Counted from the first letter of the stretch, positions 13,134-38,000 are shown. The stretch: 64,000 nucleotides of DNA from Clostridium sp. chh4-2 (GCF_002899675.1 NZ_PKUU01000025.1:48555-112554); one strand, 5' to 3'. Numbers and translations are program-made. Notes: generated from the letters alone by a model not told the origin.

Positions 13134-13159
13134 GCTTTGTGCACAAAGGAGAAAATGAG

Positions 13160-20306: not shown

Positions 20307-21077
20307 ATGACTATTATCAAATCAATGGTAATTGCCTGCGCGATGTATTCGAAGATACCCATGCCCAAAGTGGACTGGAATGAAAAAAATATGAAATACG
20401 CGCTTTGCTTTTTCCCTCTGGTGGGTCTTCTGGAAGGCGCGGCATTTTTCGCATTTTACTGCCTGTTGGGATATATCAACGCAGGAGAGCTTTTTAAGGC
20501 ATCTGTTTTGTGCGCAGTTCCGGTTCTGATCACAGGGGGAATCCACATGGACGGTTTTCTGGACACCATGGACGCGTTAAGCTCCTACCAGACCAGGGAA
20601 CGAAAATTGGAGATATTAAAAGATTCCCATACGGGGGCATTTGCAATTATCGGCTGCGCCGTTTATATGGTGCTGTATCTGGGCGGTGTGAGCGGCTTAA
20701 AGGATGCACAAAGCTGCCTGCTGATTTCGCTGGGATTTGTGATATCCAGGTCTCTGAGCGGCCTTTCTCTGGTCCTTTTTCAGGGGGCGAGAAAGAACGG
20801 CTTGGCTTATACATTTTCAAGTTCTGCCCACAAGGCGGTTACCAGGGGAGTGCTGGCGGCTGTTTTCATAATCTTCACCTGTCTGGCTTTAAGAATGAAC
20901 ATGATTGCTGGCAGCATTATGACAGCAGGGGCGGTTTTCGTGTTTTTCTATTACCGTTTCATGTCATATAAGGAATTTGGCGGAATCACAGGAGATTTGG
21001 CGGGATTTTTCCTTCAGATCTGCGAATTGGTGATGCTCTATTCCGTAGTCATTGCGGAAGGATTGAGACAACTATGA
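20307..21077 (+). CDS. cobS: Adenosylcobinamide-GDP ribazoletransferase (cobalamin synthase)
   Basis: Membrane protein with CobS-like N-terminus (IPMPKVDWNEKNMKYALCFFPLVG). Confidence 0.8.
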   Translation: MTIIKSMVIACAMYSKIPMPKVDWNEKNMKYALCFFPLVGLLEGAAFFAFYCLLGYINAGELFKASVLCAVPVLITGGIHMDGFLDTMDALSSYQTRERKLEILKDSHTGAFAIIGCAVYMVLYLGGVSGLKDAQSCLLISLGFVISRSLSGLSLVLFQGARKNGLAYTFSSSAHKAVTRGVLAAVFIIFTCLALRMNMIAGSIMTAGAVFVFFYYRFMSYKEFGGITGDLAGFFLQICELVMLYSVVIAEGLRQL

Positions 21078-22024
21078 ATTTACATATAGCGGCGCTGGGG
21101 ATCGGATTTATCCTGGATTTGATGTTCGGCGATCCCAGATGGATGATCCATCCTGTCTGCCTGATGGGCAAAACGATATCATGGGCAGAGAAAACAGTGA
21201 GAAGAATCGCAAAAGATGAAAAAAAGAAACTGCTGGCAGGAAGCGTATTTTTGTGTGCAGGAAATGTGATTTTCTGGACGGGACTGTCCTGGCTGCTGTG
21301 CAGTCTTTTATATAAAGCCGGTCCGGGCGTGGGCCTGGCCGGAGAGAGCTTTTTGTGCTATCAGCTTTTAGCCGTAAAAGGCTTGAAAAGCGAAAGCATG
21401 AAGGTGTATCAAGCTTTGAGATACGGGACAATTGAAGAGGCCCGCCATGCGGTTTCCATGATAGTGGGCCGCGATACCCAGGACTTAGATAATGCCGGGG
21501 TGACAAAGGCCGCAGTGGAAACGGTGGCGGAGAATCTGTCGGACGGGGTGATTGCACCTCTGCTTTTCATGGCAGTCGGCGGAGCTCCGTTGGGCTATTT
21601 TTATAAAGCGGTGAACACCATGGATTCCATGGTGGGGTATAAAGACGAAAAGTACCTTTATATCGGAAGAATTCCGGCGAAGCTGGACGATGTTTTAAAT
21701 TATATTCCGGCCCGGATTTCCGCACTTTTGATGATCCTTACGGCCCCGCTTGCCGGGCTGAACGGAAAAGACGCATTTAGGATTTGGAGAAGGGACGGCA
21801 GAAATCATGCCAGCCCCAATTCGGCTCAGACAGAGGCAGCGGCAGCAGGAGCGCTGGGGGTGCAGCTGGCAGGAGATGCGTATTATTTTGGCAAGCTTTA
21901 TAAAAAGCTGACCATCGGAGATAAAAAGAGAGAAATTGAAATCGAGGATATCAAACGGATAAACAGGCTGCTCTATATAACGTCGGCGGCCGCGATGCTG
22001 ATTGTTCTGGCAGTCGGCATTTAA
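21074..22024 (+). CDS. cbiB: Adenosylcobinamide-phosphate synthase
   Basis: CobD/CbiB membrane protein; overlapping start with cobS. Confidence 0.8.
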   Translation: MNLHIAALGIGFILDLMFGDPRWMIHPVCLMGKTISWAEKTVRRIAKDEKKKLLAGSVFLCAGNVIFWTGLSWLLCSLLYKAGPGVGLAGESFLCYQLLAVKGLKSESMKVYQALRYGTIEEARHAVSMIVGRDTQDLDNAGVTKAAVETVAENLSDGVIAPLLFMAVGGAPLGYFYKAVNTMDSMVGYKDEKYLYIGRIPAKLDDVLNYIPARISALLMILTAPLAGLNGKDAFRIWRRDGRNHASPNSAQTEAAAAGALGVQLAGDAYYFGKLYKKLTIGDKKREIEIEDIKRINRLLYITSAAAMLIVLAVGI

Positions 22025-22053
22025 CATCTGTACGGCTATAAAAGGAGGATAAA

Positions 22054-22842
22054 ATGTTAAACAGCAAAGAGGCGATTCTGGTTGTCAGCTTTGGAACCAG
22101 CCATGAAGATACGAGAAAAAAGACCATCGACGCCATCGTAAATGAAGTCCGCATCGCCCATCCGGAATGCAGCATCTATGAAGCCTGGACCAGCGGGATG
22201 ATCATACGGAAAGTGGGAAAAGCAGGATATCATATGATGACTGTGAGCGAGGCGATGGAACAGATCGTAAAAGACGGCGTCACCCGCCTGACAGTCCAGC
22301 CCACTCATGTGATCAACGGCATTGAAAACGACCAGATGAAAAAGGACGTGATGGCCTTTCAGGAGCAGTTAGAAGAGATCCGCTTTGGAACGCCTCTTCT
22401 CACCTGTGAACAGGATTCCTTTTACGTGATCGACACGCTGATGGAAGAGTTTGGGCCGCTGGAAGAAAAGACCGCGCTGGTATTTATGGGCCATGGAACC
22501 ACGCATTATGCCAATACCATTTATGCCGCGCTGGATTATCAGTTTAAAGATAAAGGATATCCCAATGTATTTGTGGGAACGGTGGAAGCTTATCCATCCA
22601 TGGAAACGCTGCAGAAGCATTTAAAGGAAGGCGGCTATGAAAAGCTGATTCTGGCTCCGTTCATGATCGTGGCCGGGGACCATGCGAAAAATGACATGGC
22701 AAGCGACGATAAAGAGTCCTGGAGAAGCCAGTTAGAAGGCGCAGGCTACGAAGTGAGTTGCCTGCTGAAAGGGCTTGGAGAATATAAAGGAGTCCGCCGT
22801 CTGTTTTTAAAACATATAGACCAGGCGGAAAAGGAGGGCTGA
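22054..22842 (+). CDS. cbiK: Sirohydrochlorin cobaltochelatase
   Basis: ILVVSFGTSHEDT...FMGHGTTHYANTIYAALD...LAPFMIVAGDHAKNDMASDD matches CbiK throughout. Confidence 0.85.
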   Translation: MLNSKEAILVVSFGTSHEDTRKKTIDAIVNEVRIAHPECSIYEAWTSGMIIRKVGKAGYHMMTVSEAMEQIVKDGVTRLTVQPTHVINGIENDQMKKDVMAFQEQLEEIRFGTPLLTCEQDSFYVIDTLMEEFGPLEEKTALVFMGHGTTHYANTIYAALDYQFKDKGYPNVFVGTVEAYPSMETLQKHLKEGGYEKLILAPFMIVAGDHAKNDMASDDKESWRSQLEGAGYEVSCLLKGLGEYKGVRRLFLKHIDQAEKEG

Positions 22843-22844
22843 TC

Positions 22845-23597
22845 ATGGTTCATTTTATAGGAGCGGGTCCGGGAGATCCGGAACTTTTAACAATAAAGGG
22901 GAAACGTCTGATCGATGAGGCGGATGTGATTATCTATGCCGGTTCGCTGGTAAATCCCCAGGTATTAAAGGATGCGAAAAAAGAGGCAAAGATCTACAAC
23001 AGCGCCAGTATGAACCTGGACGAAGTGATCGAAGTGATGAAAGAGGCTGAAGAAAAGGGTCTGACGGTGGCCCGGGTGCATACGGGTGATCCGGCTGTAT
23101 ACGGAGCACACAGAGAGCAGATGGACCGTCTGGACCAGCTTGGCATTGAGTACGACGTGGTTCCGGGAGTCAGCTCATTTCTGGCTGCGGCTGCGGTGCT
23201 GAAAAAAGAATATACCCTTCCGGGGGTCAGCCAGACGGTGATTCTGACCCGGATGGAGGGGCGCACCCCCATGCCGGAAGGAGAAAAGCTGGCTGATCTG
23301 GCAAAACACCAGGCTACGATGATCATATTTTTAAGCGTGGGACAGATTCAACTGCTGTCGGAGACGCTGAAGGAATCATACAGCCAGGATACTCCCGTTG
23401 CGGTGGTTTACAAGGCCACCTGGGAAGACCAGAAGATTGTGGCCGGCACTCTGAAAGATATTGCCGGAAAGGTGAAGGAAGCCGGTATTACCAAAACGGC
23501 TCTGACCGTTGTGGGCGGCTTTTTAGGAGATGACTATGAGCTGTCCAAGCTTTACGATAAACATTTTACCCATGAATACAGGAAAGGAATCGATTGA
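22845..23597 (+). CDS. cbiF: Cobalt-precorrin-4 C11-methyltransferase
   Basis: VHFIGAGPGDPELLTIKG. Confidence 0.85.
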   Translation: MVHFIGAGPGDPELLTIKGKRLIDEADVIIYAGSLVNPQVLKDAKKEAKIYNSASMNLDEVIEVMKEAEEKGLTVARVHTGDPAVYGAHREQMDRLDQLGIEYDVVPGVSSFLAAAAVLKKEYTLPGVSQTVILTRMEGRTPMPEGEKLADLAKHQATMIIFLSVGQIQLLSETLKESYSQDTPVAVVYKATWEDQKIVAGTLKDIAGKVKEAGITKTALTVVGGFLGDDYELSKLYDKHFTHEYRKGID

Positions 23598-23600
23598 GGG

Positions 23601-25988
23601 ATGATAATACGGATCGGAACAAGGAAAAGCAAACTGGCAATGGTTCAGACTGAGATTGTAAGGCGTGAGATTGAGTCCCGGTTTCCGGAAGCGGAGATCG
23701 TGATCGTGCCCATGTCCACAAAAGGGGATAAGATTCTGGACCGCTCCCTGACCTCATTTGGAGGAAAAGGGGTATTCACAAAAGAGCTGGAAGAGGCCCT
23801 TTTAAACGGTGAGATCGATATGGCTGTCCACAGCGCCAAGGATATGCCCATGGAATTTCCAAAGGGCCTCTGCATGGGCGCGGTGTTAGACCGGGCAAAT
23901 CCGGGCGACGTGCTGGTGACCACTACAGGAATCAGGGCTGTGGATTTAAAAAAGGGAAGCGTGATCGGAACCAGCAGCCTGAGGCGGGAACTTCAGTTCA
24001 AGCGCGTGAATCCCCAGGTACGCATTAAGATGCTGAGGGGCAATGTCCAGACCCGGCTGGAAAAGCTGAGACAGGGCGAGTACGACGGCATCCTGCTGGC
24101 CGCGGCAGGCTTAGAACGGCTTGGAATGGAAAAACCGGAGGGATTTTATCTGGAATATCTGGATAAAGAGCAGTTCGTTCCGGCTCCGGGACAGGGGATT
24201 TTAGCGGTGGAGATCAGGGAAGGCGGATTACCCGATATCATGAAGGGCATCCATTCAAAAGAGGCGGCCGTGATGTTAAAGGCGGAGCGGGAGTACCTTA
24301 CCCTGTTGGGAGGCAGCTGCAACGCTCCCTGCGGAGCTTACTGCCGCCGGGAAAAAGACGGCTTAATGATGACAGCCATGTATGCAAAAGACGGGATTCA
24401 TCCGGTTTATAAGAGCATGTACCGGGACGGATATGAGGAAGAGGACGGTAAAAAACTGGCGGAATGCCTGGCCGCCCAGGTCAGTTATAAAACTGTGTCT
24501 TTGGTGGGCGCAGGACCCGGAGATAAGGGACTGCTGACCAGAAAGGGCCTGGAATGCGTGCGGAAAGCGGATGTGATTGTTTATGACAACCTGATTTCCC
24601 CATCCATCCTCAACGAAGCCTCGCTGGACGCTGAGCTCATCTATGCAGGAAAGCGTTCCTCCAACCATCACCTGACCCAGGATAAGATCAATGAAGTGCT
24701 GGTGAATCAAGCGGCATCAGGCAAATACGTGGTCCGTTTAAAGGGCGGAGACCCTTATATATTCGGAAGAGGCGGAGAAGAAGCGCTGGAACTGAAAAAG
24801 CATGGAATTCCATTTGAGATTGTTCCGGGAATTTCATCTTCCTACAGCGTGCCGGCTTATGCGGGCATTCCGGTTACACAGAGAAACATGGCATCCTCAT
24901 TCCATGTGATAACGGGACATGAGGGAAATCATAAAGACACGGAAGTGTTAAACTATGCAACGCTTGCCAAGGAAGAGGGAACATTAATCTTTCTGATGGG
25001 CCTTCACAATCTGGAACGCATTGCGAAAAAACTGATAGAAAATGGCAAAGATCCGGCCACTCCGGCCGCCGTCATCTCCTCAGGAACCACAGGGCGGCAG
25101 AAAAAAGCTGCTGCAACCCTGGAAACCGTGGTGCAGGCGGCGAAGGAACAGCAGATCGAGACACCGGCCATTACGGTCATCGGCCAGGTGGTGAACCTGG
25201 AAGAAGAGCTGGAATGGTTTTTGAAAGAGCGCTTATCCGGAACCAGAATCCTTTTGACGGGAACCAGGCATATGGTTAAACAGCTGGAAATGGAACTGGA
25301 CCCATTGGGGGCGGAGACCATATCGCTGAGCCTGGTGGAGACAAAACCCCTGGTATCAGAGGATGCGTTAAATGCTGTCCGCCGGATGGAAGAATACCAG
25401 TGGATCGTATTTACCAGCATAAACGGAGTGAACCTGTTCTTTGACATTCTGCGCAGAGAGCATATCGATTTGAGAAAACTGATGCACCTGAAATTTGCTG
25501 CGGTAGGAAAGAGCAGTGCAAAGGCGCTGGAAGATCAGGGATTCATCTGTGATTTTCAGCCGTCGGTCTATTCCGGCGCAGCCCTGGCCCGGGAATGGGT
25601 GCCAACCCTGGATACCGGCGTGAAAGTGATGTTTGTGCGGGCAAAGGATGTATCAAGCGCTCTGCCGGATGCCTTAAAGGCGGCCGGCATAGAGTACAAA
25701 GATCTTCCGCTGTATGAGACATGGACGGATGAGCGCAGAAAAGAGGAACTGAACCGCATTATAAAAGATGTGGACTACATAACAGTCGCCAGCGGCTCGG
25801 CCGCGAGAGCGCTTAAAAATATGCTGGATGAAACGAACCGGCCGGAGGCCAGAATCATTTCCATCGGCCCTTCCACCACAGAGGAAGCGAAAAAGGCCGG
25901 ACTGGAAGTTTACGATACGGCGGCGGAATACACGGCGGCCGGAATTGCTGAGGCGATTTTGGCGGACCGGTTAAAAGAGCTTCGTTAA
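23601..25988 (+). CDS. Trifunctional fusion: porphobilinogen deaminase (HemC) + uroporphyrinogen-III C-methyltransferase (CobA) + uroporphyrinogen-III synthase (HemD)
   Basis: aa 1-295 HemC (IRIGTRKSKLAMVQT...AVHSAKDMP); aa ~297-540 SUMT (SLVGAGPGDKGLLTRKG...); aa ~545-795 HemD. Single uninterrupted 795-aa ORF. Confidence 0.8.
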   Translation: MIIRIGTRKSKLAMVQTEIVRREIESRFPEAEIVIVPMSTKGDKILDRSLTSFGGKGVFTKELEEALLNGEIDMAVHSAKDMPMEFPKGLCMGAVLDRANPGDVLVTTTGIRAVDLKKGSVIGTSSLRRELQFKRVNPQVRIKMLRGNVQTRLEKLRQGEYDGILLAAAGLERLGMEKPEGFYLEYLDKEQFVPAPGQGILAVEIREGGLPDIMKGIHSKEAAVMLKAEREYLTLLGGSCNAPCGAYCRREKDGLMMTAMYAKDGIHPVYKSMYRDGYEEEDGKKLAECLAAQVSYKTVSLVGAGPGDKGLLTRKGLECVRKADVIVYDNLISPSILNEASLDAELIYAGKRSSNHHLTQDKINEVLVNQAASGKYVVRLKGGDPYIFGRGGEEALELKKHGIPFEIVPGISSSYSVPAYAGIPVTQRNMASSFHVITGHEGNHKDTEVLNYATLAKEEGTLIFLMGLHNLERIAKKLIENGKDPATPAAVISSGTTGRQKKAAATLETVVQAAKEQQIETPAITVIGQVVNLEEELEWFLKERLSGTRILLTGTRHMVKQLEMELDPLGAETISLSLVETKPLVSEDALNAVRRMEEYQWIVFTSINGVNLFFDILRREHIDLRKLMHLKFAAVGKSSAKALEDQGFICDFQPSVYSGAALAREWVPTLDTGVKVMFVRAKDVSSALPDALKAAGIEYKDLPLYETWTDERRKEELNRIIKDVDYITVASGSAARALKNMLDETNRPEARIISIGPSTTEEAKKAGLEVYDTAAEYTAAGIAEAILADRLKELR

Positions 25989-26009
25989 CTCCGAATGAGA
26001 GGATAAAAT

Positions 26010-27506
26010 ATGGCGGCAAAAGTGATTATGATACAGGGAACCATGTCCAATTCCGGAAAGAGCTTTGTCACGGCCGGACTCTGCCGTGTGTTTAAGCAGG
26101 ACGGATACCGGACGGCTCCCTTTAAATCTCAGAATATGGCATTGAATTCCTATATAACAAAAGACGGGCTGGAGATCGGCCGGGCGCAGGCCATGCAGGC
26201 CGAGGCGGCGGGAATTGAGCCCACGGTGTACATGAACCCGATCCTGTTAAAACCCACCAGCAACGTGGGAAGCCAGGTGATTGTAAACGGCGAGGTGCTG
26301 GGAAACTGGAAGGCCGTCGACTACTACAGGGATAAAACCAGGTTCATACCCGACGTAAAGCGTGCCTTTGACGCTTTGGCAGAAGAGTACGATATCATAG
26401 TGATCGAGGGCGCCGGAAGTCCGGCGGAAATCAACCTCAGGGAAAATGACATCGTGAACATGGGCCTTGCCAAAATGGTCCATGCGCCGGTGATCCTGGT
26501 GGGAGACATCGACCGGGGCGGCGTGTTCGCATCCCTTTACGGGACGGTGAAGCTGTTGGAGCCGGACGAACAGAAGATGATAAAAGGCCTGGCTGTGAAT
26601 AAATTCCGGGGCGACGTTTCCATCCTGGAACCGGGCCTTAGAATGATAGAAGAAAAAACGGGAATCCCCATGGTCGGTGTGATTCCCATGGAGAATATCG
26701 ATATTGACGACGAGGACAGCTTATCCGACCGGCTGAACCGGGTGACGGCCGGGGCAGGTGTGGACATTGCGGTGATCCGCCTTCCCCACATATCCAATTT
26801 CACGGATTTCAGCGCATTTGAGCGCCTGAAGGGAGTTTCACTCCGGTATGTGACAGCCCCCGGGCAGCTGAAAAACCCGGATCTGGTGCTGCTTCCAGGA
26901 ACCAAGAACACCATGGACGATATGAACTGGCTGCGGGAAAGCGGCCTGGAAACCCTGATTCTCCGCCTGTCGGAACAGGACGTTCCGGTGATCGGAATCT
27001 GCGGCGGATTCCAGCTTTTAGGGAAAATGCTTCACGATCCCATGAACGTGGAACACGGCGGAAGCATGCGGGGAATGGGGCTTTTGGACGCGGAAACCGT
27101 ATTCGCCCAGGAAAAGACCAGAACCCGGACCACCGGACAGTTTCTCTATCCGGTTCCCATGTTTGGCTCCTTCGGCGAAAAGGAAGTGACCGGATATGAG
27201 ATCCATATGGGACAGACCGTGAATCTGGGCGGCTGCAAAGAGGCAGTGCGCCTTTTAGACGGAAGAACCGACGGCCTTTCCAATGAAAAAGGCACCGTGT
27301 TCGGTTCCTATCTGCACGGAATTTTCGATACGGACGGACTGGCTGCCGCACTTTCGTCAGCGCTGGCTCTTAAAAAGGGAATCTGCCTGGAAGAAGAGGA
27401 TTTTGACCTGCAGGCATACAAAGAACAACAGTATGACAAGCTGGCGGATCTGATCAGATCGTCTTTTGATATGGAAGCGGTCTACCGCATGATGGAGGAA
27501 GAATAA
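26010..27506 (+). CDS. cobQ: Cobyric acid synthase
   Basis: [14 protein letters not shown]-loop-like start plus C-terminal GATase ([10 protein letters not shown]); 498 aa. Confidence 0.85.
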
Positions 27507-27510
27507 ACGC

Positions 27511-28143
27511 ATGGCAGAAGAGATAAAATTTGTAAAACCGGATGAGATAGAAAAAAGAAGCATGGAAATCATCGCCCGGGAACTGGGGGAGAGAACCTGG
27601 CCGGAAGAGGAATTTCTGGTGGTAAAACGCTGCATCCACACATCGGCTGATTTCGATTACGCGGACAACCTGGTGTTTTCCCATCAGGCGGTTCAAAAGG
27701 GAATCGAGGCGCTGAAAGCGGGCGCGGTTATCGTCACGGATACCAATATGGCCGCAGCGGGCATCAATAAGAAATCATTGGAAAAATGCGGCGGAAGCGT
27801 CCGCTGCTTTATGGCGGATGAAGATGTGGCAAGAGAAGCAAAAGAGCGGGGCGTAACCCGGGCCACCGTATGCATGGAGCGGGGGGCCGCCCTCAATGGG
27901 CCGGCAATCTTTGCGGTGGGCAATGCGCCGACTGCGCTGATCCGTCTGCATGAGATGATGAAAGAAGGTCTGGTTAATCCGGCGCTGATCATCGGTACCC
28001 CGGTGGGATTTGTCAATGTGGTGGAATCCAAAGAACTGATTCTGAAAGATGAGGTTCCGTCCATCATTGCAAGAGGCAGAAAAGGAGGCAGCAACATCGC
28101 CGCTTCTATCTGTAATGCTCTCCTTTACCAGATAGCAAGATAA
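27511..28143 (+). CDS. cbiC: Cobalt-precorrin-8 methylmutase
   Basis: CbiC/CobH family; IHTSADFDYA motif; 210 aa. Confidence 0.85.
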   Translation: MAEEIKFVKPDEIEKRSMEIIARELGERTWPEEEFLVVKRCIHTSADFDYADNLVFSHQAVQKGIEALKAGAVIVTDTNMAAAGINKKSLEKCGGSVRCFMADEDVAREAKERGVTRATVCMERGAALNGPAIFAVGNAPTALIRLHEMMKEGLVNPALIIGTPVGFVNVVESKELILKDEVPSIIARGRKGGSNIAASICNALLYQIAR

Positions 28144-28163: not shown

Positions 28164-29423
28164 TCAATGGGACCGGTACTGCTTAGGCGTCAGTCCCGTG
28201 TGCTTTTTAAATATTTTAGAAAAATAGCTCTGGTCCTCAAAACCGGTGGCTATCGCAATATTAATCAACGAATAATCGGTGTTGGCCAGAAGGCGCTTGC
28301 TCTCCTCCACCCGCACCATATTCAGGTATTCCTTAAAAGAAGAACCGCAGGCCTGTTTGAATATGGAAGAAAAATAGGCAGGATTTAAGTGGACCTGATC
28401 CGCCACATCTTCCAAGGTCAGAGAAGACGCGAAGTTTTCGGATATGTATTTCATGGCCTTTCTGACCACATCTCCATTTTTCGTATTCAGCTGGCTGAAC
28501 ATGCATTCCATATAGATATCCAGGACTTCCTGAAGCATATAGCAGAGGGCGTCGATGCTCTTCACCGTCTGAAGGTTTTTCAGGAACTGGTTGTTGATCT
28601 TTAAGATCTGATCGGTTCCCGCACCCCCTTCGATGGCCGATCTGGAAAGAAGGGAGCAGAGCTCAGAGGCCCGGCTTTTGATGATTTCGATGCTGTTCCC
28701 CTCTGAGAAGAATACATAGCCCAACAGGTCGTTTAAGATCGCACTGGCTTCCTGCTTGTTGCCTGTTTTTACTTTGGTTAAAAGTTCCCGTTCCTTTTCA
28801 AACGGATAGGATATTTTCTTGTCCAGTTCCAGATTTTTGTACATCTGGATGGATTCGTTGATCTTGGACTGCTGATGAATCTTTCCGCGGTTGAAGATCA
28901 GCTCCTGTCTGGCGTCTGATACGAAGTTGGAAAACAGATGATACAAAAGACGGCTGACCTGAGTGACCATGGACGGTGGAATCACCGTAACCTGGCCCGC
29001 ATAATCGTAGAGATCCAGCAGGGATTCCAGGGGAATATCCGGATAATTGTTGTGCAGGTCCGTGATGAGCAGAGAGTCTGGATTTTCCATTAAAAAGGGG
29101 CCTACTAAAATGGAACCAAACAGGGCCTCCTGGTTGATTAACGGAAAAACGATGTGGTTTAAACCGGCATGACAGGAAAAAATATAAGTTTCACCCAGCT
29201 CCATGGCCCGCTTTCCTGCGGTTGCATGAAGCTTCTGGCAGGAATCATTGGGAGGAAGATAGGGGATAAAATGGCGGCAGTATGTGCTGGGGTCGCCGCA
29301 GCGTTCCAAAACATTGCCGTTTTCATCCAGCACCTGAATCGGAAGCTTTAGACAAGCATGGAAAGCTTCTAAAAGTTCCTGAAGTTTTTCTTTGGCTACG
29401 ATTGTATACAGATAAGATTCCAT
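28164..29423 (-). CDS. AraC-family transcriptional regulator with N-terminal PocR-type sensory domain
   Basis: C-terminal AraC HTH (TLEDVADQVHLNPAYFSSIFK...GFEDQSYFSKIFKKHTG); N-terminal YIFSCHAGLNHIVFPL PocR-like block; aaggggg RBS before ATG at 29423 (the track start at 29534 is an upstream extension). Confidence 0.7.
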   Translation of the reverse strand: MESYLYTIVAKEKLQELLEAFHACLKLPIQVLDENGNVLERCGDPSTYCRHFIPYLPPNDSCQKLHATAGKRAMELGETYIFSCHAGLNHIVFPLINQEALFGSILVGPFLMENPDSLLITDLHNNYPDIPLESLLDLYDYAGQVTVIPPSMVTQVSRLLYHLFSNFVSDARQELIFNRGKIHQQSKINESIQMYKNLELDKKISYPFEKERELLTKVKTGNKQEASAILNDLLGYVFFSEGNSIEIIKSRASELCSLLSRSAIEGGAGTDQILKINNQFLKNLQTVKSIDALCYMLQEVLDIYMECMFSQLNTKNGDVVRKAMKYISENFASSLTLEDVADQVHLNPAYFSSIFKQACGSSFKEYLNMVRVEESKRLLANTDYSLINIAIATGFEDQSYFSKIFKKHTGLTPKQYRSH

Positions 29424-29536
29424 AAAAATTCCCCCCTTAATTAAAGCTATTATATCATAAAACCGTATAAAATCCAAAAATAATACAATAAATCTAAAAA
29501 AATCCCAATGCCGCAGGTGATGGAAGGGAGACAAGC

Positions 29537-31717
29537 ATGAAAATCAGCAATTTACAGCCTAAAATGAACCGGGATGAGGTGTTCCGGCTGATCGACTGTC
29601 ATGAAGACAGCCCCGTTTATGAAGAAGTGGAAGAATCCTATGAGAGTCTGGAAGAAGAAGTTTATAAGATGATCGAACCGGCAGGAATTTTTGAATTTTC
29701 CCGGCTGACGAAAGAAACGGAGACAAAAGAGTATCCGGCAGGAACCCCGGTGATCTATCTGATCGCCACCGTGGGACGCAAGGTGAGCGCCTATGCGGAT
29801 CAGCTTTTCAAGGAAGGCGAGTTTCTAAAAGGCATGCTGGCGGACGCCATGGCGGACTCCTGCCTGTTCAGCCTGGAACGGTCCTGGCAGGAACAGATCA
29901 AAGAGGCCTGCGGAAACAGGAATGTGGGGATTGCCAGGCGCTTGGAGGCTCCTCAGGATATTCCCATGGAAGCCCAGAAGGAGGCATATGAAGTCCTCCG
30001 CGCCAAAGAGGAACTGGATATGAACCTGTCCTCGGGATATATGTACGATCCGGTAAAATCCACATGCCAGGTATTTGTGCTCACTTCAGACCGTGAAGTA
30101 TTCCGCACACAGCATAACTGCAGAGCCTGTTCCAAACTGGACTGCAAGATGAGGAATATTCCTCCCGTCCAGGTGGAAGTGACGGAACAATCCGGCACCT
30201 ATTTTATGGAACTAAAGGATAAAGAAAGCATTATGGACGGTTTGATCCGCCATGGCACCTATCTCAGCGCGGTATGCGGGGGAAAGGGCATCTGCGGTAA
30301 ATGCCGGATCAGGGTAACAAAAGGCAGCCTGCCCCCATCCCCGTCCGACCGCAAATTTTTCACGGAAAAAGAGCTGGAAGAAGGCTGCCGTCTTTCCTGT
30401 CTGGCTTATCCCCAGGATGACGTAAGCATCCTTTTAGAAAATGGACAGGAAGACAGTTTCGAAGTGCTGAGCCAATTCCAGGAACAAAAAAAACAGACGA
30501 AAACCTCAGGCAGCAGTTACGGCATCGCTATCGATATCGGAACCACAACCATCGCAGTTCATCTGATTTCCGTTCCGGACGGAGCCCTGGCCGCTTCCCA
30601 CAGTTCCATTAACCACCAGCGGGCCTATGGCGCCGACGTGGTATCCAGAATGCTGGCATCCAACCAGGGAAAAGGGGAAGAACTGAGGGCCTGCATCCGA
30701 AAAGATCTTTTAGAAGGAATCCGTTCCGTAATTAGCCGGGGCGGGATTGATGCGGATCAGATTAAAAAGATTGCCGTAGGCGCCAACACCACGATGACCC
30801 ATCTGCTTTTAGGGTTTTCCTGTGAAACATTGGGCGTATATCCCTTTGACCCGGTGGATATCAGTTACATTATCCGTCCATTTGAAGAGGTATTCGGTGA
30901 TACGATGTTAGAATGTCCGGTGGAAATCCTGCCCGGAATCTCCACCTACGTGGGCGGAGATATCGTTTCGGGGCTGCTGTTCTGCGGATTTCATAAGTCG
31001 GAACAGGTGAGCGTGCTCATCGACCTGGGAACCAACGGGGAGATGGCAATCGGCTGTAAAGACAGGATATTGGTAACCTCCACTGCGGCCGGGCCTGCAT
31101 TTGAGGGCGGAAATATCAGCTGCGGCATGGGAAGCGTGGCGGGGGCGATCTGCCATGTAAACCTGGATCAGAATAACCGTCCTGCCATAGAAACCATAGG
31201 AAAACAGCCTCCCATCGGACTTTGCGGAACCGGAGTGATTGAAACTACGGCAGAGCTGATACGGACCGGTCTGGTGGATGAAACCGGGCTTTTGGATGAC
31301 GAATATTTCGACGACGGGCTGGTTTTAGCTTTGGCGCCCGATGGAAAAGAGATATCCTTTACTCAAAAGGATGTGAGAGAGATTCAGCTGGCCAAATCCG
31401 CTGTGAGAGCCGGACTGGAAACCCTGATTCTCAGATACGGCGTTTCCTATGAACAGATCCATAAAGTCTATTTGGCCGGAGGATTCGGATATAAGATCGA
31501 CCAGCAGAAGGCGGTGGCAATCGGCATGATTCCGGAAGAACTGGCCGGAAAGATCGAAACTGTGGGCAACAGTTCCTTAGGAGGCGCTTATCTGGCGCTC
31601 ACAAAAGAACACGCCAAAGAAGAGATGGAGCAGCTGGTGGCCCGGTCAGAGGAAATCGGTCTGTCCACGGACAAGGACTTTAATGAGTTTTACATGGAAT
31701 ATATGTATTTTGAGTAA
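29537..31717 (+). CDS. RACo-like ATP-dependent corrinoid reductive activase homolog: N-terminal MetH-activation-domain-like region + plant-type 2Fe-2S ferredoxin + ASKHA ATPase (DUF4445-type)
   Basis: CGGKGICGKCR...CRLSC ferredoxin motif (aa ~245-290); GIAIDIGTTTIAVHL ASKHA phosphate-1 motif; N-terminal 190 aa aligns by eye with the MetH C-terminal activation domain. 726 aa. Confidence 0.65.
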   Translation: MKISNLQPKMNRDEVFRLIDCHEDSPVYEEVEESYESLEEEVYKMIEPAGIFEFSRLTKETETKEYPAGTPVIYLIATVGRKVSAYADQLFKEGEFLKGMLADAMADSCLFSLERSWQEQIKEACGNRNVGIARRLEAPQDIPMEAQKEAYEVLRAKEELDMNLSSGYMYDPVKSTCQVFVLTSDREVFRTQHNCRACSKLDCKMRNIPPVQVEVTEQSGTYFMELKDKESIMDGLIRHGTYLSAVCGGKGICGKCRIRVTKGSLPPSPSDRKFFTEKELEEGCRLSCLAYPQDDVSILLENGQEDSFEVLSQFQEQKKQTKTSGSSYGIAIDIGTTTIAVHLISVPDGALAASHSSINHQRAYGADVVSRMLASNQGKGEELRACIRKDLLEGIRSVISRGGIDADQIKKIAVGANTTMTHLLLGFSCETLGVYPFDPVDISYIIRPFEEVFGDTMLECPVEILPGISTYVGGDIVSGLLFCGFHKSEQVSVLIDLGTNGEMAIGCKDRILVTSTAAGPAFEGGNISCGMGSVAGAICHVNLDQNNRPAIETIGKQPPIGLCGTGVIETTAELIRTGLVDETGLLDDEYFDDGLVLALAPDGKEISFTQKDVREIQLAKSAVRAGLETLILRYGVSYEQIHKVYLAGGFGYKIDQQKAVAIGMIPEELAGKIETVGNSSLGGAYLALTKEHAKEEMEQLVARSEEIGLSTDKDFNEFYMEYMYFE

Positions 31718-31804: not shown

Positions 31805-32968
31805 ATGATGCAGGATAAGGAAATACAGGAATGTCCCCAGGGATATGTATGGAAAGAGAATAAGAAACTCCGATGCGGATATACAACAGGTTCCTGTGCC
31901 GCCGCCGCGGCCAAGGCAGCTCTTTTTACACTGCTTTCAGGGACTGTATCGGATCATGTGGAGCTTATGACGCCCAAAGGAATCCGCCTTTATCTGGAGG
32001 TAGAAGAGCTGGAAAAGGGCGACGGCTGGGCGTCCTGCGGAATCAGGAAGGACGGAGGCGACGACCCGGACGCGACCCATGGCCTTCTCATCATGGCAAA
32101 GGTGAGCAGAACAGAAGAACCGGGAATTGAGATAGACGGCGGCCCCGGAGTGGGACGGGTTACCAGGAAAGGCCTGGACCAGCCGCCCGGAGCCGCAGCC
32201 ATCAACCGGGTTCCAAGGGAAATGATAACGAGAGAGATGGAAGCGCTTTTGAAGGAATACGGTGATTTGGGCGGGATTAAGGTGGAGATTTCCGTGCCGG
32301 AAGGCGAAAAAACGGCGGAAAAGACATTTAATCCCCGTCTTGGTATTGTGGGCGGAATCTCCATTTTGGGAACCAGCGGGATTGTGATTCCCATGAGCGA
32401 AGCGGCTCTGATTGCCAGCATCGGAATAGAGATGAAGCAGCTTTTAGCGGAGGGGAACGGTTACATTGTCCTTTCTCCCGGCAATTACGGGGAGTCCTTC
32501 TCCCTGAATCAATATGAGATTCCCGGACGGTATATCGTAAAGACCAGCAACTTCATCGGAGAGAGCATCGATTTGGCCATGGAGGCGGGAGCCAAGGGAA
32601 TCCTGATGATCGGCCATATCGGAAAATTTGTGAAGCTGGCAGGCGGCATCATGAACACCCATTCCAGAAATGCGGACGCCAGGACGGAACTGATGGCAGC
32701 CCATGTGATCCGCTGCGGCGGGGATGCGGCCACGGCGGCCAAGATTTTAGAATGTGTGACCACAGACGAAGCTTTGGAAGTCTTAAAGCAGGCAGGAATG
32801 CTTAAACAGGTATCCAAAAGCCTGTTGGAAAAAATCCTCTATTATGTGGAGCGCAGGGGATATGGCCGCTTAGAGACGGGAATCGTGATGTATTCCAATG
32901 AGTACGGACTTTTAGGAGCAACGAAACAGGTTCCGGATCTTCTGAAGAAAGTAAAGGAGTATATGTGA
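31805..32968 (+). CDS. cbiD: Cobalt-precorrin-5B (C1)-methyltransferase
   Basis: LRCGYTTGSCAAAAAKAA signature; 387 aa. Confidence 0.85.
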   Translation: MMQDKEIQECPQGYVWKENKKLRCGYTTGSCAAAAAKAALFTLLSGTVSDHVELMTPKGIRLYLEVEELEKGDGWASCGIRKDGGDDPDATHGLLIMAKVSRTEEPGIEIDGGPGVGRVTRKGLDQPPGAAAINRVPREMITREMEALLKEYGDLGGIKVEISVPEGEKTAEKTFNPRLGIVGGISILGTSGIVIPMSEAALIASIGIEMKQLLAEGNGYIVLSPGNYGESFSLNQYEIPGRYIVKTSNFIGESIDLAMEAGAKGILMIGHIGKFVKLAGGIMNTHSRNADARTELMAAHVIRCGGDAATAAKILECVTTDEALEVLKQAGMLKQVSKSLLEKILYYVERRGYGRLETGIVMYSNEYGLLGATKQVPDLLKKVKEYM

Positions 32969-32969
32969 A

Positions 32970-34925
32970 ATGAATGCAGTACTGATATTTGCAGGAACCA
33001 GTGAGGGAAGAGAACTGGCCTCCTTTTTAAGCCGGAATCGGATTGAATCCTGGGTGAGCGTGGCGACCGAATACGGCGAGACGCTGCTTCCGAAAGAGGA
33101 AAACACAACCGTCGTAACCGGATATAAAGATCAGCAGGAGATCCGGCTTTTTCTGAATGAACACGGCTTTTCCTGTGTGGTGGACGCTACCCATCCCTAT
33201 GCGGTGAAAGCCACCCAGCATATAAAGGCGGCCTGTGAAAGCGCAGGCGTACCGTATTACAGGCTTCTAAGGGAAGAAGAACATGGGCTGGCCGGGTCAG
33301 ACCGGGCCGTCTGCGTTGCATCTGTCCGGGAAGCGGCAGAGTATTTAAAAGACAAAGAAGGAAATGTGATGATAACCACCGGAAGCAAAGAACTGGCGCC
33401 TTATATGGAGTTATCCGACCCATCCAGGCTGTATTTCCGCGTGCTTCCCACCGCATCCTCCTTAGAACTCTGTACGGCTCAGAACATCTCTCCTAAAAAT
33501 GTGATCGCCATGCAGGGACCCTTTGGCAGAGAGCTGAATGCGGCCCTGATCCGTCAGTTTCATTGCCGCTACCTGGTGACCAAGTCTTCCGGACAGGCAG
33601 GCGGATTCGAAGAAAAAATCCAGGCCTGTGAGGATGCCGGAGCGGTTCCGGTAGTGATTAAACGGCCGGAAGAGACAGAAGGATACACGGCAAAAGAGAT
33701 CAGAAAGCTTTTGCTGGAACAGTACGGAATTGAAGAAAAGGCCGTAATTACCATAGCAGGGATCGGGCCTGGATCAGAGAACATGATGACGTCGGAGGTG
33801 TTGCAAAAACTTTCGGAAGCGGACGTATGCATTGGAAGCGGCCGTATGCTGGAAGCGGCGAAAGTACGGGGAATGGCAGTTTTTGACAGCTACCGGCCTG
33901 AGGAGATAAAGGAGTGGATAAAAGCTCATCCCGAGTATCAAAATATCATGATACTCATGTCCGGCGACATCGGATTTTACAGCGGAACGAAAAAACTCAT
34001 GGATCAGCTGGAAGAATATCCGGTCACATTGCTTCCCGGAATTTCTTCCGTATCCGCATTTTGCGCAAAGCTTGGCATATCCTGGGATGATATGTTTTTA
34101 TGCAGCGTCCACGGAAGAAAACAGAATCTGATACAAAAGATACGGAGCCACAGAAAAGTATTTGCTCTGTTGGGAAAGGAAGAGGAATTTCACCGTTTGT
34201 GCGCTCTCATGACAGAATTCGGGATGGAGGATGTGACCATTTATATTGGAGATTCCCTGTCTTATGGCCAGGAACGGATCTTTAAGGGAACTCCCCGAAC
34301 GGCGGTGAAGGAGAAATTTTCCAATCTGTGCTGTGCGGTTTTTATAAATGAGCGGTTTGAAAAGAAAAAGCTGCTTCTGGGAATTCCGGAAGAACAATTT
34401 ATACGGGATAAGGTGCCCATGACAAAAGATGAAGTGAGGTGCATTTCCATAGCAAAACTTCAGATGGAACAGGATTCCGTTGTTTATGATATCGGGGCGG
34501 GTACCGGTTCGGTATCCGTGGAACTGGCTTTGGCAGCAGAAGACGGCATGGTGTATGCGGTTGAAAAGAAGCCGCTGGCGGCGGAGCTGATCGGTAAAAA
34601 CAGGGATAAATTCTGTCTTTCCAATCTGGAAATTATAGAAGGAACAGCGCCCGAAGCCCTATTAAACCTGCCGGTTCCGACCCATGCATTTATCGGAGGC
34701 TCTTCCGGCAATTTAAAAGAGATCATAGAAGTTCTGAAACGGAAAAATCCGTCTGTGAGGATTGTAATCAACGCCATCGCCCTGGAAACAGTGGCCGAAA
34801 TCGCGGCTCTCGGCAGAGAATACCAGATAGAAATCGTTCAGGTTCAGGCGGCGAAAGCGAAAAAAGCGGGAAATTACCATCTGATGATGGGACAAAACCC
34901 CGTAACAATTGCAGTGATTGAATAA
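32970..34925 (+). CDS. Trifunctional fusion: cobalt-precorrin-6A reductase (CbiJ) + cobalt-precorrin-7 C5-methyltransferase (CbiE) + cobalt-precorrin-6B C15-methyltransferase (decarboxylating, CbiT)
   Basis: aa 1-250 CbiJ/CobK (MNAVLIFAGTSEGRELA); aa ~255-455 CbiE (ITIAGIGPGSENMMT); aa ~460-651 CbiT SAM-MTase (YDIGAGTGSVSVELA). Confidence 0.8.
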   Translation: MNAVLIFAGTSEGRELASFLSRNRIESWVSVATEYGETLLPKEENTTVVTGYKDQQEIRLFLNEHGFSCVVDATHPYAVKATQHIKAACESAGVPYYRLLREEEHGLAGSDRAVCVASVREAAEYLKDKEGNVMITTGSKELAPYMELSDPSRLYFRVLPTASSLELCTAQNISPKNVIAMQGPFGRELNAALIRQFHCRYLVTKSSGQAGGFEEKIQACEDAGAVPVVIKRPEETEGYTAKEIRKLLLEQYGIEEKAVITIAGIGPGSENMMTSEVLQKLSEADVCIGSGRMLEAAKVRGMAVFDSYRPEEIKEWIKAHPEYQNIMILMSGDIGFYSGTKKLMDQLEEYPVTLLPGISSVSAFCAKLGISWDDMFLCSVHGRKQNLIQKIRSHRKVFALLGKEEEFHRLCALMTEFGMEDVTIYIGDSLSYGQERIFKGTPRTAVKEKFSNLCCAVFINERFEKKKLLLGIPEEQFIRDKVPMTKDEVRCISIAKLQMEQDSVVYDIGAGTGSVSVELALAAEDGMVYAVEKKPLAAELIGKNRDKFCLSNLEIIEGTAPEALLNLPVPTHAFIGGSSGNLKEIIEVLKRKNPSVRIVINAIALETVAEIAALGREYQIEIVQVQAAKAKKAGNYHLMMGQNPVTIAVIE

Positions 34926-34978
34926 AGGTAACTGTTCAGCAGGTCTGCGCATTTACGAAGAAAGAAAGGGGACTGGCT

Positions 34979-35956
34979 ATGTTGTATCTGGTAACAGGGC
35001 CTGAAAAATCAGGGAAATCGGCCAAAGCGGAGGCGCTGGCGGTTCGTTTAGGAGAAAAAAGAATCTATCTTGCAACCATGGTCCCATTCGGGGAAGAGGG
35101 AAAAAAGCGGGTGGAGCATCATCGGGAGCTGCGAAAAGAAAAAGGGTTTCAGACCGTAGAATGCCCGGTTTTCATCGACCGGCTGGATATTCCAAGTGAC
35201 GCCGTGGTGGTGTTGGAATGCATTGTGAACCTGACTGCGAATTTCTATTTCGGAACGGAGGAAACCCCAGCCCATCCGGCGGAGGAAACCATCCGGCTGG
35301 TCTGCGAAAAAGTGAATGAACTGAAAGGCAAATGTCAGGAACTCATTGTGGTAACGGGCCAAATGGAGTATGATCAAAGCTATGACAAAGAAACGAGAGA
35401 TTATATAGAGACGGTGCACCAGGTCAACCGCCGGTTAGAGCAGATGGCAGACCGGTTGATCGGAAGCGAGCCCCAGGATTATCCCCGCTTTCCGCTGTTC
35501 GTGGATATCAGCAAAAAACGGGTTCTGGTGGCCGGAGCGGGCAAAATTGCGGCCAGAAGAGCTGCTGTTTTAGCTGAATTCGGCGCGGTTGTCCTTGTGG
35601 CGGCGCCGGATGGATGCGCCCAGATGGAACAGCTGGAACAGAGCGGCCAGGTCCATTGGGAGAGAAGGCCCGTAAGAGAAACGGATTTGGCAGGCGTTTA
35701 TCTGGCTGTGGCCGCGACAAACCGCCCGGATGTCAACGGCCGCCTTGCAAAATTATGCAGAGAGCGGGGAATTATGGTCAGCCATGCGGGGGATGAAAGC
35801 CAGTGCAGCTTTTATTTTCCGGGAATCGCCCGGGAAGGGGAACTGGTGGCCGGAGTGGTTGCGGACGGTAAGAACCACAGCCTTGCCAAACAGGCGGCCC
35901 AATCTCTCAGAATCTGGCTCAAACAGTTTATGGCGGAGAGGAAAGACGAGAGATGA
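34979..35956 (+). CDS. Fusion of adenosylcobinamide kinase/guanylyltransferase (CobU) with precorrin-2 dehydrogenase (SirC / CysG N-terminal domain)
   Basis: N-terminal LYLVTGPEKSGKSAKAE P-loop + HH motif (CobU); C-terminal KRVLVAGAGKIAARRAAVLAEFGA Rossmann fold typical of siroheme synthase N-terminal domain. Confidence 0.7.
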   Translation: MLYLVTGPEKSGKSAKAEALAVRLGEKRIYLATMVPFGEEGKKRVEHHRELRKEKGFQTVECPVFIDRLDIPSDAVVVLECIVNLTANFYFGTEETPAHPAEETIRLVCEKVNELKGKCQELIVVTGQMEYDQSYDKETRDYIETVHQVNRRLEQMADRLIGSEPQDYPRFPLFVDISKKRVLVAGAGKIAARRAAVLAEFGAVVLVAAPDGCAQMEQLEQSGQVHWERRPVRETDLAGVYLAVAATNRPDVNGRLAKLCRERGIMVSHAGDESQCSFYFPGIAREGELVAGVVADGKNHSLAKQAAQSLRIWLKQFMAERKDER

Positions 35957-37047
35957 AGACACATGGAGGAGATATCTACGGCGTATCTGCAAGTCTTGGC
36001 GTGAGGCCGGAAGATTGTCTGGACTTTTCAGCGAATATGAACCCTCTTGGTATTCCGGGGAGCGTAAAGGAGGCTATGAAAAAGAGCCTTGAAGAACTGA
36101 TCTATTATCCGGACCCGGACTGCGCTCTTCTGGTTCATGACCTGAGTCTTTTTCACAACGTGCCGGAAGAGATGATATTGGCGGGCAACGGGGCCGCGGA
36201 TCTGATCTTCCGCCTGGTCTATGGGATCAGGCCTAAAAAGGCGCTGGTGACAGCGCCCACGTTTTTGGAATATGAAGAGGCGCTGAAGCAGACAGATGCT
36301 AAGATCGTTCATTATCAACTGAACGGGAAACTGGAAGTTACAGAAGATATATTAAACTGCATAACGGTGGGGACGGATCTCATGTTTATATGTAATCCCA
36401 ACAACCCTACAGGTATTTTAACAGAAAAAAAACTTATTCTGGATATAGCCAAAAAGGCTGAAGAGACAGGGACGGTCCTGGTTTTAGACGAATGCTTCCT
36501 GGATTTTACAGAAAGAGAAGCGGATGATACCATGGTGCCGTATTTACAGGATTTTCCCCATATGGTCATATTAAAATCATTTACAAAGATGTTTTCCATA
36601 CCGGGAATCCGGCTGGGATATGCTCTTTGTTCCGACAGGGAGCTGATTCGTAAGATCCGGTCTGCGGGGCAGGGCTGGAGCGTCAATACCATAGCGGCGG
36701 CGGCGGGGAGAGCGGCCTTAACAGAACGGGATTTTGTGAAAACGTCTGCCGCTTATGTAAGGGAAGAGAGAGACTGGCTGACAGCCGCATTAAAAAAACG
36801 TGGAATTCGAGTATTTCCGGGACAGGCCAATTATCTGTTGATCCAGGTGGAGGACTGTCCCGGTTTATATGATAAAATGCTAAGATACGGGATCATGATC
36901 CGCCGGTGCTGCAACTATGAAGGCCTGGATGAAACCTATTACAGGATTGCGGTCAGAAATCATGAGGATAACAGAAAACTAACGGATGTTCTGGATCAAA
37001 TTATAGAAGGAGAGAAGAAAAAATGCTGCAAAGACCGAGAAGATTAA
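35953..37047 (+). CDS. cobD: L-threonine-O-3-phosphate decarboxylase (PLP aminotransferase class I/II fold)
   Basis: HGGDIY N-terminal motif; ...ILKSFTKMFSIPGIRLGY PLP-lysine region. Confidence 0.75.
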   Translation: MKTHGGDIYGVSASLGVRPEDCLDFSANMNPLGIPGSVKEAMKKSLEELIYYPDPDCALLVHDLSLFHNVPEEMILAGNGAADLIFRLVYGIRPKKALVTAPTFLEYEEALKQTDAKIVHYQLNGKLEVTEDILNCITVGTDLMFICNPNNPTGILTEKKLILDIAKKAEETGTVLVLDECFLDFTEREADDTMVPYLQDFPHMVILKSFTKMFSIPGIRLGYALCSDRELIRKIRSAGQGWSVNTIAAAAGRAALTERDFVKTSAAYVREERDWLTAALKKRGIRVFPGQANYLLIQVEDCPGLYDKMLRYGIMIRRCCNYEGLDETYYRIAVRNHEDNRKLTDVLDQIIEGEKKKCCKDRED

Positions 37048-38000
37048 GAGGAAATGAACTGCTCAGAAAGATGGTAAGGGAGACCAGGCTGGATAAAGCG
37101 TCCCTGATTTATCCCATGTTTGTGAAAGAAGGAACCGGAATTAAAGAAGAGATCCCAACCATGCCCGGACAATTCCGCTACAGCGTGGACCAGGCGGCAT
37201 ACAAGCTGGAAGAACTGAAAAAGGCGGGGGTAAACAGCGTGATGTTTTTTGGCATCCCGGACCACAAGGACGAAGTGGGAAGCGGCGCCTATGCAGAGGA
37301 CGGAATTGTTCAGAAAGCGTTACGGGAAGCCAGAAAACAGTTCCCTGACCTCTATCTGATTACCGACGTATGCATGTGCGAATACACCTCCCACGGACAC
37401 TGCGGCGTTCTCTGCGGACATGAGGTGGACAATGATCCCACCCTTGAACTTCTCTCCAAGACCGCATTATCCCACGTGCAGGCGGGGGCGGATATGGTGG
37501 CTCCTTCCGACATGATGGACGGCCGCGTGCTGGCAATCAGGAATCAATTGGATGAAAACGGTTTTACGGGAACTCCCATCATGTCCTATGCGGTGAAATA
37601 CGCGTCTGCTTTCTACGGCCCGTTCCGGGATGCGGCAGGTTCGGCCCCTGCATTTGGAGACAGAAAATCCTACCAGATGGATTACCACAACCGGAAAGAA
37701 GGGATCAAGGAAGCCCTTTTGGATGTGGAAGAGGGAGCTGACATCATCATGGTAAAACCGGCCATGAATTATCTGGACGTGATCCGGGAAGTGGCTGATA
37801 TGGTGGACGTGCCGGTGGCGTCTTACAGCGTCAGCGGAGAATACGCCATGGTGAAAGCCGGAGCGAAGATGGGATACATAGACGAAGAGAAAATCATTGC
37901 CGAAATGGCGGTTGCATCCTACCGGGCGGGAGCGTCCATCTACCTGACTTACTTCGCAGAAGAGATCGCATCCCTGATTGACAGGGGAATTATTGGATAA
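37023..38000 (+). CDS. hemB: Porphobilinogen synthase (delta-aminolevulinate dehydratase)
   Basis: RPRRLRGNELLR N-terminus; ...MVKPAMNYLDV active-site region. Confidence 0.85.
   Translation: MLQRPRRLRGNELLRKMVRETRLDKASLIYPMFVKEGTGIKEEIPTMPGQFRYSVDQAAYKLEELKKAGVNSVMFFGIPDHKDEVGSGAYAEDGIVQKALREARKQFPDLYLITDVCMCEYTSHGHCGVLCGHEVDNDPTLELLSKTALSHVQAGADMVAPSDMMDGRVLAIRNQLDENGFTGTPIMSYAVKYASAFYGPFRDAAGSAPAFGDRKSYQMDYHNRKEGIKEALLDVEEGADIIMVKPAMNYLDVIREVADMVDVPVASYSVSGEYAMVKAGAKMGYIDEEKIIAEMAVASYRAGASIYLTYFAEEIASLIDRGIIG

Follow-up and report, generated by a model that had tools for sequence, protein, structure and literature searches.

Corrinoid methyltransferase systems allow gut Lachnospiraceae to demethylate dietary and drug methoxy compounds, methanol and quaternary amines, and all of these systems need an activase to recover from oxidation of the cobalt. 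Bacterial activases of the Ram/RACE type carry out the ATP-dependent reduction of Co(II) to Co(I) in small corrinoid proteins (PMC8604678, PMC6739815, PMC10418091). One of them, RamQ from Eubacterium limosum, has several corrinoid proteins as clients, and its gene lies away from theirs (PMC8604678, PMC12155760). The present work concerns a 64,000-nucleotide stretch of Clostridium sp. chh4-2 (GCF_002899675.1 NZ_PKUU01000025.1:48555-112554), hereafter the window, in which a 726-amino-acid (aa) member of this enzyme group and a divergently oriented PocR-AraC regulator are encoded between the cobalamin (B12) biosynthesis genes cbiC and cbiD. [quoted passage not shown] Neither this class of enzyme, nor the reaction it catalyses, nor its link with methyltransferase systems is new. 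The novelty lies in the N-terminal domain family of the protein, fused or stand-alone, in a module composed of regulator, corrinoid protein and activase, and in the repeated wiring of this module to cbi/cob operons. No description of the module or of this wiring was found in the literature, and none of the N-terminal domain family with its His-Cys3 motif was found in the literature, Pfam or NCBIfam; structure-based annotation resources may already flag the fold of the domain.

Relationship to described activases

RACo from Carboxydothermus hydrogenoformans (3ZYY, 4C1N) and AcsV resemble the activase in having an N-terminal [2Fe-2S] domain (Cx5Cx2C...C), a middle domain and an ASKHA ATPase. Identity to RACo over the ATPase part is ~33% in the Foldseek alignment to 4C1N, with the ATP motifs conserved. 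In contrast, RACo is devoid of the 205-aa MetH-like N-terminal domain, its residue 17 aligning to residue 226 of the activase. By our own reading of the alignment, the Co-ligating Ser398 of RACo stands opposite an Ala in the activase. Against the AcsV model (NCBIfam NF040756) the activase reaches 348 bits, below the cutoff of 800, and no acs or CoFeSP genes were found in the window by family scans of its open reading frames (ORFs).

The likeness to the methanogen RamA is that of a homologous ASKHA core and of reaction class. The match to the RamA model (TIGR04270) is limited to this core and scores 152 bits, below the cutoff of 500; RamA differs further in its two C-terminal [4Fe-4S] clusters, which take the place of an N-terminal [2Fe-2S] cluster, and in having no MetH-like domain. 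RamQ and the activating enzyme (AE/OdmC) of Acetobacterium dehalogenans share with the activase the enzyme family and the expected job, the N-terminal domain lying outside this comparison. Like RamQ, the activase is encoded away from client corrinoid proteins; unlike RamQ and AE/OdmC, it has a PocR-AraC regulator as its partner and lies inside a cbi operon.

Ferredoxin and ATPase domains of the activase

By its ATPase and Fe-S domains, the product of the gene at 29537-31717 (+) belongs to the RACo/RACE/Ram corrinoid reductive activases (COG3894). A first-pass annotation, made from the sequence without database searches, had recognized a RACo-type architecture in the C-terminal two-thirds of the protein, and domain searches bear this out. 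The [2Fe-2S] ferredoxin domain covers aa 211-300 (30167..30436, +), where Pfam detects Fer2 at aa 222-293 (1e-9), and aligns to the N-terminal domain of RACo. Its Fe-S ligands, C247-x5-C253-x2-C256...C288, have RACo-like spacing, and the four Cys are invariant in homologues. The ferredoxin had been predicted with the pattern CxxxxCxxC...C; the domain stands, whereas the spacing has to be corrected from Cx4Cx2C to Cx5Cx2C. The RACo middle domain and the ASKHA ATPase occupy aa 328-725 (30518..31711, +), as defined by Pfam, phmmer and Foldseek, with Raco_middle at aa 328-488 (Pfam, 7e-45) and RACo_C_ter at aa 491-725 (Pfam, 2e-72). The residues of the ATP motifs D333-I-G-T-T-T338, D496-L-G-T-N-G-E502 and G648-G-F-G651 are invariant. 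The RACo structures 3ZYY and 4C1N are matched with E-values of 1e-78 (phmmer) and 1e-40 (Foldseek).

The full-length AlphaFold2 model has a predicted local distance difference test score (pLDDT) of 85.8. In this model the N-terminal domain, the His-Cys3 motif and the Fer2 domain form one unit, which is tethered to the ATPase body by a disordered linker. This flexible linker (aa 303-322; 30443..30502, +) is the sole segment of the model with pLDDT <50.

A MetH-reactivation-like domain with a His-Cys3 motif

The N-terminal domain (aa 1-190; 29537..30106, +) has the characteristic fold of the MetH activation domain, with Thermotoga maritima TM0269 as the closest structure. Residues 1-208 gave no Pfam or NCBIfam match, even at E<=1, and Met_synt_B12 (PF02965), the family named for this region in the first-pass annotation, fails to detect the domain. 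In a phmmer search of PDB sequences the domain matches TM0269 (1J6R, E 8e-7), whose structure was deposited as the activation domain of methionine synthase, and a profile built from the domain reached 1J6R alone. The resemblance of the N-terminal ~190 aa to the MetH reactivation domain, as well as an altered contact motif for S-adenosylmethionine (AdoMet), had been proposed earlier, and both agree with these results. Two independent HMMER alignments place R134-R-L-E-A-P139 opposite the R-I-S-P-G-Y of TM0269, the RxxxGY AdoMet motif known from MetH. The RxxxGY AdoMet-binding motif is not retained. The loop R-[LM]-E-A-P-x-D (R135-x-E137-A138-P139) is itself strongly conserved in the family, with A138 conserved in 75% and P139 in 84% of 147 cluster representatives, and therefore the AdoMet loop appears to have been replaced, not merely degraded. 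Because the AdoMet motif is lost, the domain probably donates no methyl group. Compared with MetH reactivation, which employs flavodoxin and AdoMet, the domain is here fused to an ATP-driven reductase.

The domain is closed by the motif H193-x-C195-x2-C198-x4-C203 (30113..30145, +), which was defined by conservation. The motif falls outside the region aligning to TM0269, so that the activase has it in addition to the shared fold, and it had not been mentioned in the first-pass annotation. It is invariant in 121 full-length homologues and 96-99% conserved among the 147 cluster representatives (<=50% identity), fused and stand-alone forms included. The segment is modelled at pLDDT ~71-75. It probably binds metal and is a candidate Zn or Fe-S site, which C21 and C125, conserved in 85% and 80% of the representatives, possibly join.

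An exhaustive profile search placed 2,046 cluster representatives in the N-terminal domain family at E<=1e-3 and 239 at E<=1e-30. These figures are taken as the family size; a word-indexed homologue search with the domain alone gave 15 short proteins. The lengths are bimodal, with one group at ~720-810 aa and another at ~205-230 aa. Among the short forms are split genes, in which a gene for the domain is followed by a Fer2-RACo gene (L089 and probably L091 of the loci compared), and true stand-alones (L092/L093). None of the stand-alone proteins has a name in its source record. In L092 (2237-2887) and L093 (2228-2878) the stand-alone protein is 216 aa long and has the His-Cys3 motif; no RACo-type gene was found within the contig, and the neighbours encode PfkB, TauE, a C_GCAxxG_C_C protein and a LysR regulator. 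A common activase of the Lachnospiraceae carries an unannotated domain with the MetH-reactivation fold, which leads to the testable idea that such activases recognize and condition their corrinoid protein clients by means of it.

A three-gene module in Lachnospiraceae

Full-length relatives of the activase are abundant (720-760 aa, 100% coverage, 51-55% identity) and come from Blautia obeum, Ruminococcus sp. OA3, Anaerocolumna, Fusicatenibacter and others, where they are named just 'ASKHA' or 'DUF4445 domain-containing protein'. Their neighbourhoods were surveyed in one genome per species, giving 80 loci, nearly all from Lachnospiraceae; the module was counted in those 68 whose upstream DNA extended to 2.3 kb or more. 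In 55 of these 68 loci (81%) a gene for a small corrinoid protein lies directly upstream on the same strand, a divergent PocR-AraC gene is present in 50 (74%), and 43 have both. The upstream corrinoid proteins are stand-alone proteins of 212-217 aa with B12-binding_2 and B12-binding domains, at a median identity of 79% to the B. obeum protein. The divergent PocR-AraC regulator, the small MtaC-like corrinoid protein and the activase constitute a Lachnospiraceae-wide three-gene module. With the divergent regulators of the equivalent module in other genera, the window regulator shares 56-74% identity (89-97% within its own clade), which exceeds the 40-56% identity between the activases, and for this reason the regulator-activase pair is considered an orthologous module.

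The genes surrounding the module encode URO-D family methyltransferases, CobW and DUF5714 in B. obeum, MtaB in Anaerocolumna, a pterin-binding methyltransferase in Ruminococcus sp. OA3, and a TRAP transporter with two URO-D proteins in L014. In L037 the order is an MtmB-like gene (73% identical to the one at 11757-13133 of the window), URO-D, regulator, corrinoid protein and activase. The activase is assigned to methyltransferase systems because of the corrinoid protein upstream in 81% of the loci together with the URO-D, MtaB and pterin methyltransferase neighbours.

Recurrent linkage to B12 biosynthesis genes

Only the clade of the window has the regulator and activase genes side by side, without an intervening corrinoid gene, at a site flanked by cbiC and cbiD. 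This clade comprises Clostridium sp. MCC353 (L009), a metagenome-assembled genome (L010) and relatives from metagenomes in which activase identity falls to as little as 72%. Most loci (~90%) lie away from cbi genes. A gap of 26 bp separates the complete module of L014 from the following genes cbiD-cbiL-cbiH-cbiJET-cbiA-cobT-cobU-cobS, and in L039 the module is likewise directly upstream of a cbiD-led operon. In L077, L068 and L073 cbi genes lie within 3-9 kb of the module. The split activase of L089 (8001-14721), with genes for a 227-aa N-terminal domain protein and a 537-aa Fer2-RACo protein, lies directly upstream of an ORF of 175 aa that has no Pfam match, followed by cobT, cobU, cobS and relA; neither a PocR-AraC gene nor a corrinoid protein gene was found at this locus. 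The orthologues are thus found near corrinoid genes as well as near B12 genes. About five further lineages also show linkage to cbi/cob genes, which suggests co-regulation.

The PocR-AraC regulator and transcription of the locus

The AraC-family activator PocR of Salmonella is sited at the cobalamin biosynthesis operon and controls the cob and pdu operons. The window regulator resembles it in architecture, having a PocR sensory domain (aa 8-169, Pfam PF10114, E 1e-28; ~28917-29402, -) and a helix-turn-helix domain (HTH_AraC/HTH_18, Pfam, E 1e-25; ~28170-28466, -), as had been predicted. The two differ in that the window regulator scores 122 bits, below the cutoff of 500, with the Salmonella PocR equivalog model (NF047788), and has no pdu genes beside it; moreover, its orthologues flank corrinoid protein and activase genes, not cob/pdu. 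The ORFs at 28164..29534 (-) and 29537..31717 (+) are both present as first described. Within the former, the regulator gene (28164..29423, -) most likely starts at the ATG at 29423 and encodes 419 aa, because its homologues are 416-419 aa long and align from residue 1.

The two divergent genes are separated by an AT-rich spacer of 113 bp (29424..29536), which presumably carries the promoters of both. A ribosome-binding site, GGAAGGGAG, precedes the activase ATG at 29537. The spacer contains an operator-like, A-rich direct repeat, AAAAATAATAC-N8-TCTAAAAAAATCC (29476..29506, +), a pattern defined after inspection. It matches 23-25 of 53 homologous regulator-proximal intergenic regions, against an average of 0.1-0.4 in shuffles; in these 53 regions every match has one orientation and the reverse strand has none, and in the 64-kb window the match at 29476-29506 is the single one. 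This support is suggestive only, since the sequences used for counting had also served to derive the pattern, and the repeat is put forward as a candidate binding site of the PocR-AraC protein. A terminator scan and inspection of the sequence found no terminator-like structure in the 87-bp gap from the activase stop to cbiD, so that the activase gene and cbiD-hemB are probably co-transcribed. From this arrangement we infer that the PocR-AraC protein controls the rightward transcript of the activase and cbiD-hemB.

An Rfam search of the window gave no cobalamin riboswitch, even at E<=1, including the region upstream of cbiL (18290-18703), and no RNA family of any kind between 18200 and 32000. 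Wiring of the module to B12 operons could account for the adjustment of B12 supply to demand in the absence of a cobalamin riboswitch.

Proposed mechanism and competing explanations

By analogy with RACo, the A. dehalogenans activating enzyme and RamQ, a low-potential donor would reduce the [2Fe-2S] cluster (PMC6739815, PMC8604678, PMC12155760), and binding and hydrolysis of ATP in the ASKHA domain would drive the uphill transfer of the electron to Co(II), restoring the Co(I) state of the corrinoid protein. The N-terminal domain may dock onto the client at its B12-binding domain, in the manner of the MetH domain when MetH is in its reactivation conformation. The domain would act without AdoMet chemistry, and the His-Cys3 site could be structural or an additional redox centre. 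In the clade of the window, where cbiC and cbiD flank the regulator-activase pair, the corrinoid protein gene would have left the locus. Binding of the regulator to the A-rich repeat probably drives the activase and cbiD-hemB; such a transcript would couple the supply of B12 to a B12-dependent methyl-transfer system. The presence of the operator-like repeat in both the window and the canonical loci supports this interpretation. Several points weigh against it. A tblastn search of the 64-kb window with four corrinoid proteins found no corrinoid protein gene. About 10% of the loci adjoin cbi/cob genes, compared with 1-2% in a rough chance estimate that ignores phylogeny. The docking of the N-terminal domain, metal binding by the His-Cys3 motif, regulation through the repeat and co-transcription with cbiD are all inferred, and no assay of a member of the subfamily bearing the N-terminal domain was found in the literature.

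The first-pass annotation had offered three functions for the protein, namely B12 biosynthesis, reactivation of a split MetH, and service to the MtmB-like methyltransferase system upstream. The option of service to a methyltransferase system fits best, and in L037 an MtmB-like gene does lie directly beside the module. A role dedicated to the MtmB-like methyltransferase whose gene lies 15 kb upstream (11757-13133) is quite unlikely: in L037 the related MtmB-like gene and a URO-D methyltransferase gene directly flank the module, but this arrangement is found in just one of the 80 loci, and the two regions of the window are separated by genes for a putative transposase-like protein, an amidase and a LysR regulator, with no corrinoid protein or MT2 gene beside the MtmB-like gene. 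The MtmB system would be compatible with the methyltransferase-activase reading as one of several clients. A reductase of B12 biosynthesis, supplying Co(I) corrinoid intermediates for adenosylation or another reductive step and thus having a genuine cbi-operon function, is the least favoured of the three options, and we hold it to be very improbable. A biosynthetic Co(II) reductase is suggested by gene position only: the place between cbiC and cbiD is kept in the clade down to 72% identity, and the linkage to cbiD-led operons in L014 and L039, to the cbi genes of L077, L068 and L073 and to cobT-cobU-cobS in L089 points the same way. The window likewise has no cobalamin riboswitch and, as already noticed in the first-pass annotation, no adenosyltransferase, with zero matches to the adenosyltransferase families among about 55 of its 57 ORFs of at least 150 aa. 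Yet the great majority of the loci are away from cbi genes and four-fifths have a dedicated corrinoid protein. In L014 and L039 the linkage to cbi genes does not replace the methyltransferase context, because the corrinoid protein is still there, and in L014 the URO-D methyltransferases and the transporter also remain alongside. The activases that have been solved or characterized, RACo, AE and RamQ, act on protein-bound corrinoids, and adenosyltransferases receive their electrons from flavodoxin or ferredoxin and are not known to need an ATP-driven activase. The question of which reductant provides Co(I) for adenosylation in anaerobes is not solved on the present evidence.

A partnership with MetH, in which the N-terminal domain docks on the cobalamin module of a MetH without activation domain and the RACo part delivers the electron, seems to us similarly doubtful to the MtmB-dedicated role. 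It is suggested by the fold shared with the MetH reactivation domain, the closest relative being TM0269, and Huang and co-workers reportedly described in 2007 that TM0269 is required for MetH reactivation. Fitness genetics furthermore provides a precedent in Desulfovibrio and Phaeobacter, where DUF4445/RamA-like proteins reactivate a MetH lacking PF02965 (PMC5764234). Some relatives adjoin genes for pterin-binding methyltransferases and B12-binding proteins, and L024 has one near a Cys/Met pyridoxal phosphate (PLP) enzyme. Against these points, the 80 neighbourhoods contain no metH-like multidomain gene save that for an atypical 941-aa pterin and B12 protein in L024, so that of the proposed split MetH the resemblance in fold is what stands; the conserved neighbour is the stand-alone corrinoid protein; and the RxxxGY motif, central to the reductive methylation of MetH, is lost. 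Unlikely, too, is a broader possibility, that the subfamily with the N-terminal domain is a hybrid of two corrinoid-repair strategies which also acts on new or biosynthetic corrinoids at cbi/cob operons. A MetH-type domain, with the His-Cys3 motif replacing the AdoMet loop, would then position or condition the client cobalamin for the ATP-driven electron delivered by the RACo-type part. The repeated placement of the module at cbi/cob operons would reflect the action on biosynthetic corrinoids, for example the loading or reduction of the cofactor during its handover from the pathway to its carrier protein.

The 941-aa protein of L024 (15039-17864) consists of Pterin_bind, B12-binding_2 and B12-binding domains and a 460-aa C-terminal region with no match in Pfam or among PDB sequences. 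Its gene lies 3 kb downstream of the activase homologue and adjoins that of the Cys/Met PLP enzyme, and the protein may be an unusual methionine-synthase-like enzyme.

The cbi/hem cluster and other genes of the window

The regulator and activase genes are surrounded by a cbi/hem cluster of 19 kb. NCBIfam models identify an upstream block cbiL-cbiH-cobS-cbiB-cbiK-cbiF-hemC/cobA/hemD-cbiP-cbiC (18704-28143), which begins with cbiL (18704-19399, Pfam TP_methylase) and ends with cbiC (27511-28143, +), convergent with the regulator gene. Beyond the activase, the distal block cbiD, cbiJ-cbiE-cbiT, cobU-sirC, cobD and hemB (31805..38000, +) opens with cbiD (31805-32968, +), 87 bp past the activase stop, and is followed by relA. 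The flanking cbiC and cbiD genes confirm the position first reported for the pair. Its description as inserted in the middle of the operon is accurate as far as gene order goes. As a recent event the insertion does not hold, since the arrangement persists in relatives whose proteins are as little as 72% identical, and the GC content at third codon positions (GC3) of the two genes, 0.58, lies inside the range of the cbi genes (0.50-0.66), indicating an old arrangement. A recently inserted mobile cassette was also considered and rejected, as neither GC nor GC3 gives a sign of recent foreign insertion.

Two unusual gene fusions are found in the cluster, both of them kept in the close relatives L007 and L009: HemC, CobA and HemD form a single 795-aa protein (23601-25988), and CobU is joined to a precorrin-2 dehydrogenase (SirC-like) domain (34979-35956). 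Protein regulators flank and interrupt the cluster, namely a divergent LysR gene (17330-18289) and the PocR-AraC gene.

The MtmB-family protein encoded at 11757-13133, ~15 kb upstream of the activase, has 458 aa (Pfam MtmB, 2e-94) and is regarded as a non-pyrrolysine homologue because the gene has no in-frame stop. It is preceded by genes for an ADP-ribosylglycohydrolase and a divergent GntR regulator (9587-11479) and directly followed by a gene for a 524-aa multi-pass membrane protein or permease with no Pfam match (13139-14713). Between this region and the cbi cluster, an ORF of 284 aa (15629-16483) with weak helix-turn-helix matches only looks like an Rpn/transposase-type element. The sole Rfam match in the whole window at the gathering threshold is formed by the first 64 nt of a bacterial 16S rRNA gene, at the very end of the window (63937-64000). 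Two adjoining ORFs of 353 and 414 aa (58183-60404, -), each with a weak WYL-domain match only, lie upstream of an RtcB RNA ligase gene (60553-61785); WYL regulators next to RtcB are a known pairing.

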